In this document: positions 26,192-33,083 of the stretch, in pieces
Layout of the letters: every line of letters begins with the position of its first letter
Position numbering within the stretch: the stretch's first letter is position 1
Notes under the pieces: generated by a model
The model's input: the letters and a program-made list of their open reading frames with translations, nothing else
Databases searched by the model: none
What the model was told of the DNA's origin: nothing
Position numbers and translations under genes: made by a program
NCBI GenBank assembly: GCA_050331735.1
Contig: JBHJGN010000006.1
Span: forward strand, 32,001-96,000
From: Cyanophyceae cyanobacterium
GTDB lineage: Bacteria; Cyanobacteriota; Cyanobacteriia; Cyanobacteriales; JBHJGN01
Length of the DNA stretch: 64,000 bases
Direction: 5' to 3'

Positions 26192-27421
26192 ATGGGCAAA
26201 AGAGTCATTGGGGTCATGCTGACCTTTGTTCTCACAATTATCTCCTGGTGGTGGTCTCCTACTGCTGCTGCTTTTACAGAGGATCAAAAGCTACTACTAC
26301 AGTCTTGGCGAATTGTCAATCAAGCTTATCTCGACGAAACGTTTAACCATCAGAATTGGTGGCTGATTCGCCAAAAGCTGCTGAAGCGCCCTCTGACCGA
26401 GCGAGAAAAGACTTACACCGCAATCGAGGAGATGCTTGCGAGCCTGAATGACCCGTTTACACGGCTACTCAGACCTGAACAATATCGGAGTTTACAGGTC
26501 AGTACTTCTGGAGAACTCTCCGGAGTGGGGCTGCAAATTAATCTCAACGAGCAAGGAGAGCTAGAAGTGGTCGCCCCGCTAGCGGGCTCTCCGGCAGAGT
26601 CAGCCGGAATCGAGCCGCGTGATCGCATCTTAGAAATTGACGGCGTAGATACCGCTAAGCTAGCTCTCGACGAAGCCGCCACCCGGATGCGGGGGCCCGT
26701 TGGCACAACGGTTTCTTTGAAAATCCAGTCAAACGCCAGCCAAGAAACACGGACCGTTAAGCTAGTCAGGGACACAATTTCTCTCAATCCCGTTTACGCG
26801 CAGCTCGACGAGCAGCCCGAAGGCGCCAGGGTAGGCTATCTTCGCCTTAATCAGTTTAGCGCCAATGCCGTCCAAGAAATTGCTCATGCGATCGCCAAGC
26901 TAGAACAACAGGGAGCCGATGCCTACATTCTCGATCTCCGTAATAATCCGGGAGGACTGTTACAGGCAGGAATTGAGATTGCTCGCCTGTGGCTAGATAA
27001 TGGCACCATTGTCTATACGGTCAATCGGCAGGGCATGTTAGGCAGCTTCGATTCCTATGGTTCGGCTTTAACCGAAGATCCGCTAATCGTGTTAGTGAAT
27101 CAAGGAACCGCCAGCGCCAGCGAGATTTTGGCGGGGGCGCTTCAAGATAACGGGAGAGCTCTCCTAGTGGGAGAGACTACGTTTGGTAAGGGGTTGATTC
27201 AGTCTTTGTTCGAGCTTGCTGATGGCTCTGGGTTAGCCGTTACCGTCGCTAAGTATGAAACACCAAGCCATAGAGATATCAACAAGGAAGGGATAGTTCC
27301 AGATCAAGTGATTTCTCAAGCCCCCATTACTCTACAGCAGGTCGGAACAGCAGTAGATCAACAGTACCAAGAAGCGCTGCGTCTGCTGAGGGCTCACTCC
27401 GTGTTAGCCGATGCAGCCTAG
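26192..27421 (+). CDS. ctpA: C-terminal processing protease (S41), D1-processing type
   Basis: LLLQSWRIVNQAYLD, PDZ domain, DLRNNPGGLL, TASASEI, TFGKG; divergent from petB. Confidence 0.9.
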   Translation: MGKRVIGVMLTFVLTIISWWWSPTAAAFTEDQKLLLQSWRIVNQAYLDETFNHQNWWLIRQKLLKRPLTEREKTYTAIEEMLASLNDPFTRLLRPEQYRSLQVSTSGELSGVGLQINLNEQGELEVVAPLAGSPAESAGIEPRDRILEIDGVDTAKLALDEAATRMRGPVGTTVSLKIQSNASQETRTVKLVRDTISLNPVYAQLDEQPEGARVGYLRLNQFSANAVQEIAHAIAKLEQQGADAYILDLRNNPGGLLQAGIEIARLWLDNGTIVYTVNRQGMLGSFDSYGSALTEDPLIVLVNQGTASASEILAGALQDNGRALLVGETTFGKGLIQSLFELADGSGLAVTVAKYETPSHRDINKEGIVPDQVISQAPITLQQVGTAVDQQYQEALRLLRAHSVLADAA

Positions 27422-27533
27422 TTTCAGTGAGCAGTGACTAGTCATCAGCGATCCGGTAAACTAGTTTAGTCACTGACTGATAACTTTCTGAGCCTGTCAG
27501 CCTACAGTAACTAGCAACGGTGGCTGTTGTCGA

Positions 27534-28253
27534 TTAGCGTAATAGCCAGTCGTCGATCAGGTTGAGAACTGTTGTTGGTCCTAATCCTCTGACAGATTTA
27601 ACGACATCCTGGTAGTTAGCAAACGCTCGCTTCTTTCTAGCACTGATGATCCCTTGGGCTAGTTTTTCCGCACCTCGGACTTTAGAACGCTCTAACTCAA
27701 CGGCTAGTTCTGCTTCGCTCAAAGTATTGAGTGCTTCTAGAGGCTTAAGGCGCTGAGGAATTAAGCTTTCGATTTCTCTCAATCGATTGTCAGTCCTGGC
27801 TCTTTCTTGAGTTTGTTCTTCTCTAACCTGATTTAGACCTTTCTCGACCCGTAACTCCAGATTCATCAACCGCGATTCTAAAGACTGGAGACTGCCAGTG
27901 GCAGCCGCTGTATCAGTTGCTAGCGCACTGTTTCTGGCCGTAGCCGAGAGTTGCTGAAGGGTCTCTATCTGCTGAATAGCGGCTGCTTCCCTTCCTTCTG
28001 GAACGACCAACACGTTGACCATTTCTGCTTGACGAGGATTTTTCTCACTGGCTCTGACAGCAGCGTAGTATTCTAAATGACCATAAATGACTTCGTAACT
28101 TTCAAAGGCTGTTTTTTTCAAAACTAACGGTTTTAACAATCCTTCAGTTTCTAATAATCGCTCGGCGAGCCGCTCAAGATTTGCTTCCGAAAACTGGGAG
28201 CGCGGAACGTTAGAAGTAATGCTTTCTACATCTACCTTCAAAAAGGTGGCCAT
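27534..28253 (-). CDS. ParB/Srx-like N-terminal domain + coiled coil + helix-hairpin-helix protein
   Basis: PRSQFSEANLERLA..GLLKPLVL..YEVIYGH ParB-like fold lacking the GxxR arginines; C-terminal VKSVRGLGPTT HhH. Confidence 0.75.
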   Translation of the reverse strand: MATFLKVDVESITSNVPRSQFSEANLERLAERLLETEGLLKPLVLKKTAFESYEVIYGHLEYYAAVRASEKNPRQAEMVNVLVVPEGREAAAIQQIETLQQLSATARNSALATDTAAATGSLQSLESRLMNLELRVEKGLNQVREEQTQERARTDNRLREIESLIPQRLKPLEALNTLSEAELAVELERSKVRGAEKLAQGIISARKKRAFANYQDVVKSVRGLGPTTVLNLIDDWLLR

Positions 28254-29632
28254 TACTGCATCTCCATTTTGTCTAACACTTCTAGAGCCAGAGCTTCAAA
28301 TTCAGCGGCAGAAACATCAGCCGTAGAGACGGCTTTAGCATACTCAAAGATAGATTTAGGGTCGGGAACCTCTAAATCTCCGACCGAAAGAGTTTGATTG
28401 ACGCAATGGGAGAGATGCATTCTTTCTGAAATCATATTTTCCATCAGGGGAAGCTGATAGCGCTCTGGAATGATGCTTCGATGTTTAGGAAAAGTATGCT
28501 GAAGATATTTGGCATGGGTGGATATTTTAGAAGGAAGCACTCCCATAATTTTGATCGGTGGTTTTCCTAATCCTTCTTTGTTTTCGTTAATTTGTTTAGT
28601 GATAAAGTTTTTGACGCTTTCTAGTCCTTGATTAGAAAAAGGCTTAAGGTCCGAAGGAATAATTAAATAGTCAGCCGCCGTTAGCGCCACTTCTGCATAC
28701 AAATCTAGAGAGGGGGGAGTGTCGATAATGACAATATCATATTGATCTTTAACTTTTTCCAATTTTTTGACGAGGCGGAATCTACTGGCTCCGTACTGAA
28801 CTAGCTCATTTTGCCGCTCGATGAGAGTAATGTGGGAGGGAACCACATCAATTTCTGGCTGATTGAAGTAGTGAGACTGCCTGGAAAGTTCGGGAATAAA
28901 GTTAAAGTTGGTTCCTTCTAGCAAATGGTAAACGTTGCGCTCTCTAATATCATCCTCTTCTTCAAACTGAAATTTCACTAACCCCACAGCAAAGGTTGTG
29001 TTGGCTTGCGCATCGATATCAATGAGCAATACCCTTTTGCCCTTTTTTCTCAAAGCTGCTGCTAGGTTAATCGCAACAGTGGTTTTACCGACGCCACCTT
29101 TATGGTGGTAAATGGCAATTGTTTTCATAGTTGGTTGACGATTAAGGTTAAGTTGAGATGCAGCGGCACTCAGATAAGTGGAAAACTGACCAGCGTCAGA
29201 GACAGTTTGATTAAGGTTATTTTTACCGATTAACGCGTTGATACCCTCTAAATTCTGCTCGATTTGCTGACCAAGACATTGAAAAACTAACTGAATCGCG
29301 TCTTGGTCCCTCTGATAAATTCTAATTTCTCGTCCATTTGTCAACAGTCCATAGGGCGCCCTTAATCGGGTTAGATAAATTCTGAGCTTGCGCTCGTGAC
29401 GCTCTAGATTTTCTTGGGGATGTTTGGCTTCTAGGACGACAAACGGCAATTGTGTTGACGGAGACGGCATCACCCGGTTAGCGAAAGCGAGAAAATCTAG
29501 ACGGATATTGCCAAAGGCTACTTCTTGATGCCAGGTATCAGGAGAGTAGCCGAGCTTAGGCAGCAAATACTGAACAATGAGTTTACTTTCAACTTCGCTT
29601 TCGTTGCGACAAAGAGAGGGATCGAAGCTCAA
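28253..29632 (-). CDS. HsdR_N-like PD-(D/E)XK nuclease fused to a ParA/Soj ATPase
   Basis: N-terminal NESEVE..QEV..LDF..LEAK..LLTNG; C-terminal KGGVGKTT deviant Walker A, DIDAQAN, IIDTPPS. Confidence 0.88.
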   Translation of the reverse strand: MSFDPSLCRNESEVESKLIVQYLLPKLGYSPDTWHQEVAFGNIRLDFLAFANRVMPSPSTQLPFVVLEAKHPQENLERHERKLRIYLTRLRAPYGLLTNGREIRIYQRDQDAIQLVFQCLGQQIEQNLEGINALIGKNNLNQTVSDAGQFSTYLSAAASQLNLNRQPTMKTIAIYHHKGGVGKTTVAINLAAALRKKGKRVLLIDIDAQANTTFAVGLVKFQFEEEDDIRERNVYHLLEGTNFNFIPELSRQSHYFNQPEIDVVPSHITLIERQNELVQYGASRFRLVKKLEKVKDQYDIVIIDTPPSLDLYAEVALTAADYLIIPSDLKPFSNQGLESVKNFITKQINENKEGLGKPPIKIMGVLPSKISTHAKYLQHTFPKHRSIIPERYQLPLMENMISERMHLSHCVNQTLSVGDLEVPDPKSIFEYAKAVSTADVSAAEFEALALEVLDKMEMQ

Positions 29633-29929
29633 CTTTTTAGGGTAGCGTTTAAGTCAGGGGATTGTAGACTTGATTGTCTCGGAAAAGTAAGCCTCTACAC
29701 AATAGTTAAGACTACGTAATTATCGGCTTCAGGTTTACTTTCTGGAACTTCTTAGCAAAAAGTAAAATATATTACAATCGTGAAATTACGTAAAAAGTGG
29801 CGAACAGACCTTCTCGTGGTCTGTGGAGAAGGGAGAGCATCCACTTCGTCCTTGGTTATTAGTCCTTTGTCCGAATGGCTAAGGAGGTGACATCCTCCGA
29901 ATATGCCCTGTGGGGCTCAGTTAATGCTG

Positions 29930-32106
29930 TTAAGCTACGGTGGTAGTGCTAACCGGGAAGAACGATAAAGTATCAAGGCGGTCAGGGCTCACTCCCTGAA
30001 CAATTGCTAGCGTCTCGTCTTCAAAGTTGATCAAGGCATCGTTGGTTCCGTTAATGGATAGATCTCTAAAGCGGAGATTATCTAAGGCGATGAAGTCGGT
30101 GCCGACTTCAAAGTCAACAATGGTATCTGTTCCTTCGCTAGCACCGAGGACAAAAACATCTCGACCTTCCCCTCCAGAGAAATCATCCCCTTGAAGCGTG
30201 TTGTTACCCGGTCCACCCCCTAGCACATCATCCCCATACAACTGGTCGTCGTCTAAACCGCCCAGAAGCAAGTCGTTGCCGCCCTTACCGCCGAGGCGAT
30301 CGCTGCCTGCCCCGCCGACCAGAGTATCGTTGCCGCCTTCTGTTCCCCCTGGAGAGCGGCTGTTAAGGTCTCCACGCAGCACGTCATCGCCGTTGCCGCC
30401 AAAAATTTCATCATCGCCTGCTAAACCCGCGATGGTATCGCTCCCGCTACCGCCAGAAATGAGGTCAATGTTGTCGCGATCGAGGAGGGTATTGCTCTCT
30501 TCAGTGCCGATAAGACCTGTAGAAGGCGCAGGACCAAAAATAACATAGCTCTCGCCGCGGCGATCGTTATAGTCGAAGTCGTAGCCAACAATTAGATTCC
30601 CTGCACCAGGAGCGCCGATAATAAAGTCGTCAAAGCCGTCGCCATTAACGTCTCCTGCTTCGCTGACCGAGCTGCCTAAAAGATCCAAGGGATCAATGCC
30701 GCTGAGAGTAAAGCCATTAGTGCCATCTAGTTCAGCAAGATCTAAGCTCGCATCAAACCCGCTTCTGCCAAACACTACGTAGGTCTCGCCTCGGCCATTA
30801 CTATAAATGCCAAAATCACTATAAACTAGCTCTCCTGCACTAGGAGCACCGATAATGAGGTCATCAAAGCCATCACCATTAACGTCTCCCGATCCGCTCA
30901 CCGACCTGCCGGAATAGTCTTCGGCGTCAACTCCTCTAAGGACAAAACCATTGGTTCCATCTAGCTCAGCTAAATCCAAGTTTGCGTCGAACCCATTACT
31001 GCTACCGAACACGACATAGCTCTCGCCGGCTTCATAATTCCCGTTAGGATCAGCCTCATCAGCCCCAATAATTATGTCGTCAATCCCATCACTGTTTATG
31101 TCTCCAGCTTCGCTCACCGACCTGCCGGAATAGTCTCCGGCATCAATTCCTCTAAGGACAAAGCCATTAGTACCATGTACTAATCTAGCCAGATTTTGAC
31201 TAACGCCGCTTGGGAAGCTAGGAAGCGGAGGAGGAGAACTACCTAGCGTAATTTCAATCTCATAGTCGCCAGTGCTGGCAAAAAAATCAACTTCACCGCT
31301 TCCCTCTACCAAAGGATTGTATTCGGAATTAGTAACGTCGCTGACACCAATGAAGTAAGTGTCAGAGGTAGAAGTGGTAAAGTCAATTAGAGATTCAGAA
31401 CTACTGCTGCTAACACTGCTAACTTCTACTCTCTCTCCGTTTGAGTCAAAAAGCCCCAGGATTGCCTCTAGCACAAAGTCTTCTCTATCTACATGAGCAA
31501 CCAGGCGATCGCCCGCGTCAAGCTGCACCTCGAACAGATCGACATCCGCCCCTGGAGTAACGTTGAAATTATCACCAATAGCACCAGAGAAGCTAAACGT
31601 GCTCAGGTTTTCAGCGCTTAACCCCGTTGGCGTTGCGGTCGCAATGGTATCGTTCGGTTCATATGTAGGGGACTCTCAAGGGTAATTTCAAGCGAATACT
31701 CGCCAGTACTACCAAAGTCTCCACTTCCTTCTGTGAAAGGATCGTAGGAAAAATTACTATAGCCGCTGACTCCAATAAAGTAAGTATCAGAGACAACAGC
31801 GGTAAAGTTTATTAAAGAGTCTAAACTGCCAAAATCATCATCATTAACCGCAACTTCATTTCCGTTGGCAGCAAACAGACGCAAAATTGAATCTAGCGAG
31901 GAGCCGACGATATCAGCTTCAATGTCGATCGTGAGGCGATCGCCCACATCAAGCTGTACCTTAAACAGATCGACATCCGATTGAGGAGCTATATCTGGGT
32001 TATCACCAATCTCCCCAGAAAAACTCAGCCGCCCCAAATTATTAGCGCTTAAGCCTGTCGGGGTTGCGGTTGCTAGCGTATCGTTTCGTTCAGAAAAAGT
32101 TACCAT
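29930..32106 (-). pseudogene. Frameshifted secreted protein: 2x PPC-like domains, FG-GAP repeats, RTX Ca-binding repeats
   Basis: The two ORFs (31618-32106, 29930-31528) join if one C is added at the C4 run (plus strand 31668-31671), giving ESPPTYEPNDTIATATPTG, a repeat of domain 1. AGDVNGDGFDDLIIGAP and GGxGxD repeats follow. Confidence 0.8.
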
Positions 32107-33083
32107 TACTTGTTTCTTTTGAGTTGTTGGTCACACTTGAAGTGCTGTTTCAAGCGCACCAGTTGTTGCCACAAACCAACATTTACGCTGTAGCTATTCC
32201 ACAAATACATCCCCAATTTATGGCAATCCAGATTATTGCCATAAATTTTCTGCACTCAAAAATTAGTTAGCTATTCTTTCGCTAATGTTATTGCGGACGC
32301 TTTGCCTTCCTGATGATGTGTTTGCTAGGAGCAAGTTAGCGCAAATAAAATGACTCGCTCATCGACCATCAATAAAATCTGGCGGGGTACTGCTAGATAG
32401 CACTTTCTGTACTAGTTATTAAAATTTAATCCATCCTCAAATTTTTACTTCTGCTTGATAGCAGCATTTTTTGCTTAAATTACGAGTTTGATTGTCTCAA
32501 AAAGATTGGCTTTTGTGCATTAGTAAAATTACTTAGTGGTTTAATTAAAATCAAAGCTTCTTGGTTTCTCAACATCAGTAAAAATACGTAGCTATTCGTA
32601 TTTCTTTGGATTGCTTATCCTACATAGAATGAAAGGACAAATTCTACTGCATTTTTCAGTTGTGTTGCAATCGAAAAAACAACCGCATTTTTTTGAAAAT
32701 TACCAATTATTTTTAGTGGTCGCCACCAAGTAAATGAGCGAACGTTGATTGCTTTTTGCAGTCTATAAAAAGGCAAAAATAACCTGATTGGTCATTATGT
32801 TTTTTCCGAAAACGCCATTTTTAAGGACTACCAATCAATTTACTCTAGGCAACATAAACGGAGTTTTAAAGCCTAAAATTGGCTAAGCAAGACAAGAAGC
32901 AATTATAGGCATTATCAAAATTTTCTACTAAAGAACTTAAAAGTAGCAGCATCAAGACAATCCGCCCGGTATGAGGGGACGTTTTCCTGGAATTGAACTA
33001 ACTGGGGTTTTTCTAGGGCTAACTCGTTACGGTACGCTGGAAGTAACATCTAGATAGCACTCATGAACTGAGTGTTCCTTTCT

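Follow-up and report, generated by a model that had tools for sequence, protein, structure and literature searches.

What does a cyanobacterium do with a partition ATPase that carries a restriction-type nuclease on its N-terminus? The question is raised by two overlapping genes in a 64,000-nucleotide stretch of DNA from Cyanophyceae cyanobacterium (assembly GCA_050331735.1, contig JBHJGN010000006.1, positions 32,001 to 96,000), hereafter the window. The first gene, g1, encodes a fusion of a restriction endonuclease (REase) domain to ParA, and the second, g2, encodes a ParB-like partner. An earlier note, made from the sequence alone, had proposed that the pair serves defence or DNA surveillance. 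We consider it reasonably probable that the pair is an effector-ParAB module, that is, a REase-ParA protein with an inactive ParB ending in a tandem helix-hairpin-helix, or (HhH)2, domain. Modules of this class descend from ParAB partition genes, and the prediction is that they act against invading DNA.

Both open reading frames (ORFs) are in tandem on the minus strand, with g1 first, and their parts are as follows.

28253..29632, minus strand: g1, REase-ParA fusion protein, 459 aa, TTG start and TAA stop at 28253-28255 (Pfam and full-length homologues)
29213..29632, minus strand: HsdR / type IIG-type PD-(D/E)XK nuclease domain, g1 aa 1-140, with E11/E13/E15, E37, D46, E68-x-K70 and T98-N99-G100 (AlphaFold2, AF2, model and fold matches)
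29129..29212, minus strand: variable linker, g1 aa 141-168, of low model confidence (pLDDT <50 for aa 148-165) and of varying length among homologues
28256..29128, minus strand: ParA/Soj-type deviant Walker A ATPase, g1 aa 169-459, with K178-GGVGK183-T, D205/D207 and D304 (Pfam)
28251..28255, minus strand: TAATG stop/start overlap coupling g1 and g2 (sequence)
27534..28253, minus strand: g2, degenerate ParB-like protein, 239 aa (ParB_N, 30.7 bits)
27990..28253, minus strand: ParB/Srx-fold domain, g2 aa 1-88, with G58-H-L-E-Y-Y-A-A65 in place of the GERRxRA box (Foldseek, VIA)
27750..27989, minus strand: two long helices, predicted coiled coil, g2 aa 89-168 (AF2 helices 89-115 and 122-164; poorly conserved)
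27537..27749, minus strand: tandem (HhH)2 domain, g2 aa 169-239 (VIA matches to TEFM, KIF22, ComEA, DUF655 and Tex HhH domains, Z 6.5-8.7)

The earlier note had read g1 as an HsdR_N-type PD-(D/E)XK domain, a linker and a full ParA, and this reading holds. Pfam assigns AAA_31 at 187.7 bits (aa 169-350) and HSDR_N at 30.3 bits (cut-off 25.1; aa 42-111), with HSDR_N_2 just under its cut-off of 25 at 23.9 bits. All the motifs then quoted are present (Q36-E37-V38, L45-D46-F47, E68-A69-K70, T98-N99-G100 and KGGVGKTT at 178-185). The AF2 model of aa 1-165 (pLDDT 84.7, pTM 0.79) is matched by VIA-align to the type IIL enzyme DrdV (Z 12.1, rmsd 2.4 A over 120 aa), V. vulnificus HsdR (Z 11.8), BpuSI (Z 11.0) and EcoR124I HsdR (Z 8.2). 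Foldseek gave weak rows for this domain (E >= 5e-3), and the clear matches came from VIA-align. Among solved proteins, the ParA domain comes closest to chromosomal ParAs of the Soj type, the best being ParA (8ray) and Soj of H. pylori (6iub), at E about 1e-20. The searches of g1 and g2 with PADLOC and NCBIfam returned generic ParA as the sole informative family, and a Pfam search of g1 for an SF2 translocase motor gave just a sub-threshold ResIII match of 17.1 bits over the P-loop region.

Loss of the nuclease residues in homologues had been named in the earlier note as grounds for abandoning its reading; they are conserved. D46, E68 and K70 are kept in 72/72 sequences that have the N-domain, and T98-N99-G100 in 73/73. 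Likewise, K178, K183 and T184, which include the signature lysine of the deviant Walker A, are kept in 81/81, and the Walker A valine V181 is invariant in 24/24, a valine common to many ParAs. By these residue counts and domain matches, g1 is an HsdR-type nuclease domain with all of its predicted catalytic residues, joined to a complete ParA ATPase.

The partner retains the fold of ParB without its best-known features. Pfam matches g2 to ParB_N at 30.7 bits (cut-off 26.3; aa 7-69), and its AF2 model (pLDDT 87.5) has a ParB/Srx fold that Foldseek relates to Noc, ParB, PadC and KorB (E 1e-5 to 1e-3) and VIA to Srx (Z 10.7), KorB (Z 10.4) and PadC (Z 10.2). The replacement of the CTP-binding arginines, which the earlier note had seen in the stretch YGHLEYYAA, is confirmed: these residues are aa 57-65, the box column reads G58-H-[F/L]-E-Y-Y-A-A65, and G58, Y62 and A68 are present in 80/80 sequences. 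An arginine occurs in this box at position 60 only, in 13/80 sequences, and the copy in the window has none there. The ParB fold begins at residue 3, and g2 has no LG-R/K-GL sequence, the N-terminal ParA-binding motif of ParB (PMC12704722).

The C-terminal half also agrees with the earlier note, which had called a coiled coil and an HhH in place of the helix-turn-helix (HTH). AF2 places the two long helices listed above, no Pfam match to HTH_ParB is found in g2, and VIA matches aa 169-239 to TEFM (Z 8.7), KIF22 (Z 8.4), ComEA (Z 7.5, 28% identity) and Tex (Z 6.5, 32% identity). The Pfam match of g2 itself to HHH_3 lies below cut-off (15.8 bits), and the HhH call is backed by the tandem-HhH model matches and by HHH_6 matches in 12/24 relatives. 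Ten of the 24 (10/24) have DUF655 and one (1/24), the Thiomargarita copy, has Rho_N instead; related cyanobacterial clusters with Rho_N appear in the protein atlas as well. Taken together, the models describe g2 as a ParB/Srx fold without the CTP-binding arginines, followed by a coiled coil and by an (HhH)2 domain, likely a sequence-independent binder of double-stranded DNA, in place of the parS-reading HTH.

Other architectures occur among relatives of g2. One homologue of 389 aa (L027:6861-8030) has a second match to g2 residues 126-236, which suggests a duplicated coiled-coil/HhH part. Four proteins, P0127 (836 aa), P0167 (1283 aa), P0166 (432 aa) and P0136 (276 aa), each hold two stretches of the ParB_N subfamily of g2 and no other Pfam domain.

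Do the two genes belong together? The ORFs and their overlap were found where the earlier note had put them: CATTA at 28251-28255 of the plus strand is TAATG on the minus strand, so the TAA of g1 and the ATG of g2 share one base. Full-length homologues of g1 are found at 50-71% identity, and many of them, mostly cyanobacterial, at 60-71%. In 79/80 related loci, taken from species genomes, a g2 homologue lies directly downstream, and the 80th locus ends at a contig edge. Across the 79 junctions the gaps are -1 (35), -4 (22), +2 (13), +3 (3), 0 (2), +16 (2), +62 (1) and -31 (1), so that an overlap of 1 or 4 nt is found at 57/79. Judged from these junctions, g1 and g2 are translationally coupled and almost always adjacent. 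Eight of the loci (in Nodosilinea, Phormidesmis, Vasconcelosia and similar) encode a ParA of 285-297 aa without the nuclease domain and keep the same g2 partner.

Structural modelling supports binding between the two products. A model of g1(166-459) with g2 reached an ipSAE of 0.68 against 0.00 for the best control, a mark reached by 116/157 solved complexes and by 2/215 mismatched pairs. At least 42% of contacts agree between runs, and the partner pLDDT is at least 79. The modelled contacts join the first strand of g2 (aa 4-8), aa 50-51 and aa 73-78 to g1 240-243, 279-285 and 354-355. Of these, g1 240-243 and 279-285 belong to the insert that separates the Walker A' strand from the Walker B strand, a region described as the ParA partner-binding surface in the relevant passages of a recent preprint (bioRxiv 10.64898/2026.10.19.760177). 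Because g2 has no LG-R/K-GL peptide, the model would have the folded g2 domain itself dock on ParA.

How far, then, is the pair from an ordinary partition locus? ParABS systems (Soj/Spo0J, type I ParAB) share with it the deviant Walker A ParA, the partner with a ParB/Srx-fold N-domain and the parA-then-parB order. They differ in that g2 lacks the GERRxRA box, the catalytic Box III, HTH_ParB and LG-R/K-GL, in that ParA here carries a nuclease domain, in that the g1-g2 pair is absent from the plasmids searched, and in that the genome has no canonical parS. Specifically, canonical parS with <=1 mismatch gave 0 matches in the 5.57-Mb genome, where a non-canonical site is possible, and TIGR00180 ParB gave nothing at E <= 0.01 in this genome, which is 99.98% complete. 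The earlier note's view that this is not ordinary partitioning is therefore sustained. g2 is the sole ParB_N match above the Pfam cut-off in the genome of the window. The only other ParB_N-like match in the same genome (G000, contig C29:104963-105184) is weak, in an 89-aa open frame at 25.3 bits, below cut-off. Searches with tblastn for g2 gave zero matches in 72,556 plasmids or 50,697 phages, and of the 4830 plasmid records with a match to g1, not one spans >=80% of the protein. PLSDB yielded no copy of this subfamily. On these searches, the pair is not a plasmid or phage partition module.

A class that fits the pair has been described. Li, Burroughs and Aravind (bioRxiv 10.64898/2026.10.19.760177, 22 Oct 2026) define, by computation, an 'effector-ParAB system' that they predict to be immune. 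In the passages that bear on our pair, the class has an operonic ParA and ParB with ParB predicted to be inactive, a ConB1-clade ParA marked by a conserved Walker A valine, an effector placed N-terminally on ParA and most commonly a REase, and an HhH or Rho-N HeH where ParB otherwise has its HTH. It is said there to be over-represented in multicellular bacteria such as cyanobacteria. Since the window's pair shows the operonic coupling, the N-terminal REase, the degenerate ParB and the HhH for HTH, we assign it to this class, from which those passages reveal no architectural difference. The earlier note had stated that it knew of no experimental characterisation; this was correct for experiments, and the class itself has been in print since October 2026. 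We found no other description of effector-ParAB in the literature searched, where the term occurs in that one paper. The pair is not described by MacCready et al. 2020 (PMC7182216), who do not mention endonuclease or restriction, nor in the main text of a survey of ParB-CTPases (PMC12704722), which does not mention HhH or coiled coil.

Two further groups of systems resemble parts of the pair. Type I HsdR and type IIG/IIL nucleases (DrdV, BpuSI, EcoR124I HsdR) share the PD-(D/E)XK sub-fold with its D...ExK motif. They differ in their motor, which is an SF2 translocase where g1 has a ParA ATPase, and the locus and its surroundings out to about 17 kb contain neither a methyltransferase nor a specificity subunit. 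The defence proteins GmrSD, SspE and DndB use a ParB/Srx-fold domain outside partition, in nuclease-containing systems, where it is joined to or works with nucleases of the HNH/DUF1524 type and presumably binds or hydrolyses NTP. By contrast, g2 is a separate protein without the arginine box that is paired with ParA, and no PADLOC model of these systems matched it.

Which parts of the pair vary? We compared 12 Nostoc loci with the same flanks, and the mean pairwise protein identities were as follows.

purD: 93.4%
histidine kinase: 95.3%
g1, whole: 81.7%
g1 nuclease domain: 93.2%
g1 ParA domain: 76.8% (minimum 55%)
g2, whole: 65.1% (median 47.5%, minimum 34%)
g2 ParB_N: 74.9%
g2 coiled coil: 57.5%
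g2 HhH domain: 61.4%
GT2: 92.6%

This pattern of identities makes the ParA domain plus g2 the variable unit, with the nuclease constant. The boundaries are sharp at the DNA level: between L039 and L013, identity is 91-98% through the opening few hundred bases of g1, drops to 51-69% at the g1 linker, stays in that range as far as the g2 stop, and recovers to 88-98% immediately beyond it. A pair of loci of the same class is 87-99% identical across g1 and g2. There are at least 3 g2 allele classes at one Nostoc locus, and clustering of g2 at 65% identity gives 27 classes over all loci. Moreover, divergence of the ParA domain and of ParB_N is correlated, with r = 0.84 in the 12 Nostoc loci and r = 0.85 in all 71 fused sequences, the window's copy counted. 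The pattern fits diversifying selection or allele replacement acting on what would be a specificity or switch module, and it does not sit easily with a role in core housekeeping. The relevant passages of the effector-ParAB preprint contain neither this cassette pattern nor the housekeeping context of the fused form. The sharply bounded cassette, the defence genes around the ParA-only relatives (below) and the g1-g2 binding model are new in this analysis.

Additional genes accompany the pair in some relatives. In 14 Nostocales loci (L003, L014, L015, L019, L021, L047, L049, L056, L058, L062, L065, L076, L078, L081) a second, divergent stand-alone ParA of 294-313 aa, about 26-31% identical to the g1 ATPase, lies upstream of g1 on the opposite strand (e.g. 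L015:4571-5476, minus strand); the window has no such second ParA beside the pair. A tandem extra ParA-only copy, 66-67% identical to the g1 ATPase domain, stands just upstream of the fused gene in Anabaena (L070:4758-5636) and in one sampled genome (G035 contig C9:30070-30951). In loci of the second g2 allele class (L003, L019, L033, L052, L053, L065, L071, L073, L078; e.g. L033:8328-9107), g2 is followed by a third gene in the same orientation, encoding 234-259 aa. This gene (cluster 11) was considered as a g2 relative in these Nostocales loci and rejected, with an hhalign probability of 0.3% and no Pfam family; the window has no such gene.

Relatives of g2 are widespread: among representatives at 50% identity, a profile of g2 matches 1713 proteins at E <= 1e-3, of which 379 reach E <= 1e-30. 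In the phylum, 74/301 genomes match g1 at E <= 1e-20, and from the match table we read the fused form in about 42/301, of which 30 are collinear and full-length and 12 have a longer linker. Presence is patchy inside single genera (e.g. 2/8 and 2/5 genomes), and the genome of the window has one copy of the nuclease domain. Full pairs outside the cyanobacteria, in metagenome-assembled genomes (MAGs) of Thiomargarita (L020) and Entotheonella (L029) whose g1 is 55-61% identical to the window's, point to horizontal transfer.

The genes around the pair give a mixed picture of a defence role. We scanned with PADLOC one representative for each of 276 neighbour-gene clusters (733 ORFs), leaving out the g1 and g2 clusters and setting aside matches to Ser/Thr kinases, oxidoreductases, desaturases and subtilases as generic. 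Strong neighbours were found at 5/8 of the loci with ParA-only and g2, a fraction that has no background rate to compare, and they include HEC-05 (5e-225), DrmMI/type IIG-like, UvrD/GajB-like helicase, RT_UG29, DpdF and PDC-S09. In L022 and L023 (e.g. L023:231-10404) a DrmMI/type IIG-like methyltransferase, HEC-05, ParA with g2 and a UvrD/GajB-like helicase lie on one strand, the methyltransferase upstream and the helicase downstream of the ParA gene, with HEC-05 (PADLOC 5e-225) ending 29 nt before it. The nuclease-less ParA and g2 of these two loci may be embedded in a larger defence system. The earlier note had suggested looking for enrichment in defence islands; the ParA-only relatives sit among defence genes, and the window's copy sits among housekeeping genes.

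Several points weigh against a role in conflict with invading DNA. Strong non-generic neighbours occur within 6 kb in just 8/72 fused loci (SspH-like fragments, mad2, mad3, mad8, RT_XIII, PD_DExK and AbiU), again with no background rate to compare, and most fused copies have housekeeping neighbours. The window's copy likewise lies among housekeeping and metabolic genes, with no mobile-element or defence gene within about 17 kb. Synteny is stable within Nostocales (purD, histidine kinase, Zn-ribbon gene, g1, g2, GT2) and within Chamaesiphon (dacB, g1, g2, dnaJ-TPR, rsmE). No methyltransferase or other self-marking partner is evident that would serve to tell self from non-self. In PADLOC-DB 2.0, the database check proposed in the earlier note, no model covers the pair: g1 matched PDC-M28B over just 44 residues at the Walker A (34.3 bits), and g2 gave no match. 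The set of 80 loci leans heavily on Nostoc, and its members are not independent of one another. The score of the binding model may partly reflect likeness to ParA-ParB complexes that are already solved, and the correlated divergence could come from linkage inside one recombination block, not from co-adaptation. Finally, experiments on the class were found neither in the relevant passages of the preprint nor in the literature searched.

Part of this evidence can be read in favour of a housekeeping nucleoid role, in which a divergent chromosomal ParAB would position, space, resolve or degrade chromosome copies in polyploid cyanobacteria and the nuclease would process DNA, such as entangled or damaged copies, instead of attacking invaders. 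The pair is found on chromosomes only, with housekeeping neighbours and lineage-stable synteny. The genome has neither a TIGR00180 ParB nor a canonical parS, g2 is its sole ParB_N match above cut-off, and g1 is the best of its 13 AAA_31 matches. The foreign hosts, Thiomargarita and Entotheonella, are large or filamentous bacteria. Against this stand the patchy distribution even within genera, with the fused form in about 42/301 genomes, and the absence of mutual exclusion with canonical ParB across the 301 genomes, where most cyanobacterial TIGR00180 matches span the N-domain only and many lie on small contigs. Allelic classes with <=48% g2 identity between flanking genes that are >=88% identical are unlike a core segregation factor, the C-terminal DNA-binding domain swaps between HhH and Rho_N, and ParA-only relatives sit in defence islands. 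We regard such a role as unlikely.

Replacement of the cassette by recombination would also suit a selfish addiction element of the toxin-antitoxin kind, where g1 is a DNA-cutting toxin restrained by co-translated g2, loss kills the cell and no dedicated anti-invader role exists. So would the tight translational coupling, the strict pairing, the modelled g1-g2 binding and the GC content of the pair, 41.5-45.6% against about 49-52% in the flanks. Yet the searched collections of plasmids and phages, in which addiction modules are common, do not contain the pair; known type II toxin-antitoxin pairs make do with less machinery than a full ATPase plus a DNA-binding partner; and the effector-less ParA-only forms keep the same g2 partner, which indicates that the ParA-g2 pair functions without a toxin. 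This explanation seems to us improbable. Derivation from ParA-ParB and a GC below that of the flanks could even mark a functionless relic, namely a partition locus of a plasmid or mobile element that the chromosome took in, an explanation which is very hard to credit when both frames are intact, catalytic and ATPase residues are invariant across orders, g2 relatives form 379 clusters at E <= 1e-30, and neither a plasmid or phage copy in the collections searched nor a mobile-element gene nearby (29 ORFs, 10-48 kb) was found. Each of the housekeeping, addiction and relic explanations is less well supported than a conflict system. The anti-plasmid or anti-phage role put forward in the earlier note stays plausible in that it fits the prediction in the preprint's relevant passages, the cassette and the defence neighbours of ParA-only relatives; it gains nothing from PADLOC models or from the housekeeping context.

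How might an effector-ParAB module of this kind work? The following steps draw on the known behaviour of the families. g2 would dimerise through its coiled coil and bind DNA through (HhH)2 without sequence specificity, and its remnant ParB pocket may sense the state of the DNA or a nucleotide. Its ParB-fold domain would dock on the partner-binding face of the g1 ParA and set the ATP/dimer cycle. ATP-bound g1 would form a ParA sandwich dimer on DNA, pairing two single-site nuclease domains so that both strands are cut; the nuclease domain has its solved relatives in the cleavage domains of enzymes of type I and type IIG/IIL. The DNA attacked may belong to an invader, or to the cell itself in a suicide response. 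In this sense g1 would be, we infer, the 'ParA-gated nuclease' of the earlier note. The relevant passages of the preprint propose a ParA/ParB coat as the primary block and the effector as a back-up or suicide arm, and we place more weight on ATP-driven pairing of the nuclease. A more tentative and rather doubtful extension is that a specificity cassette of ParA/ParB-(HhH)2, which recombination can swap, both directs and licenses a constant HsdR-type nuclease.

The surroundings of the pair in the window can be described briefly. On one side lie petB/petD and ctpA; on the other are genes for a secreted FG-GAP/RTX protein, a PPC-domain protein and glycolate-oxidase-like proteins. A domain scan of 29 further ORFs in the 10-48 kb interval found neither hsdM/hsdS nor an integrase or transposase, in agreement with the earlier note as regards hsdM/hsdS. 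The note had also placed the pair in an accessory patch after ctpA. There is indeed a patch upstream, made of two likely secreted proteins, one with FG-GAP and RTX repeats (532 aa) and one with a PPC domain (162 aa), and then a stretch of 36.6% GC (window 29930-32106 and 32000-32999), and it holds no defence or mobile-element gene. The remaining feature lies between this patch and g1.

29633..29929, minus strand: intergenic region upstream of the g1-g2 operon, containing short inverted repeats and a promoter-like site (29766-29794)

Its promoter-like part is tentative, because the count of such sites does not exceed that expected from shuffled sequence; promoter and terminator scans beside the operon gave no excess over this expectation. 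Centromere-like or operator repeats were sought there too and rejected, as the short two-copy repeats present are indistinguishable from chance. The HIP1 octamer occurs 47 times in the window, against 0.9 expected from shuffles, which marks the genome as that of a HIP1-rich cyanobacterium. That the pair has no HIP1 site, as the earlier note observed, is true and weak: none lies in 26896-30295, yet other parts of the window also go 4-5 kb without one, and we rejected the missing sites as a sign of foreign origin, for they are not significant.

The module is common in filamentous and other large cyanobacteria. If the prediction holds, it would give these organisms an immune mechanism built from DNA-partition machinery, in which an ATP switch that rides on DNA carries its own restriction-type nuclease and needs no self-marking methyltransferase. 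The cassette offers a handle on it, as the variable part (ParA domain and g2) should hold specificity and the constant nuclease should be the effector. Were the cassette idea true, partition-style ParA-ParB dynamics, and not methylation, would tell a foreign replicon from the resident chromosomes in cyanobacteria, and co-evolving ParA-ParB interfaces would keep allelic classes apart, much like plasmid incompatibility groups.

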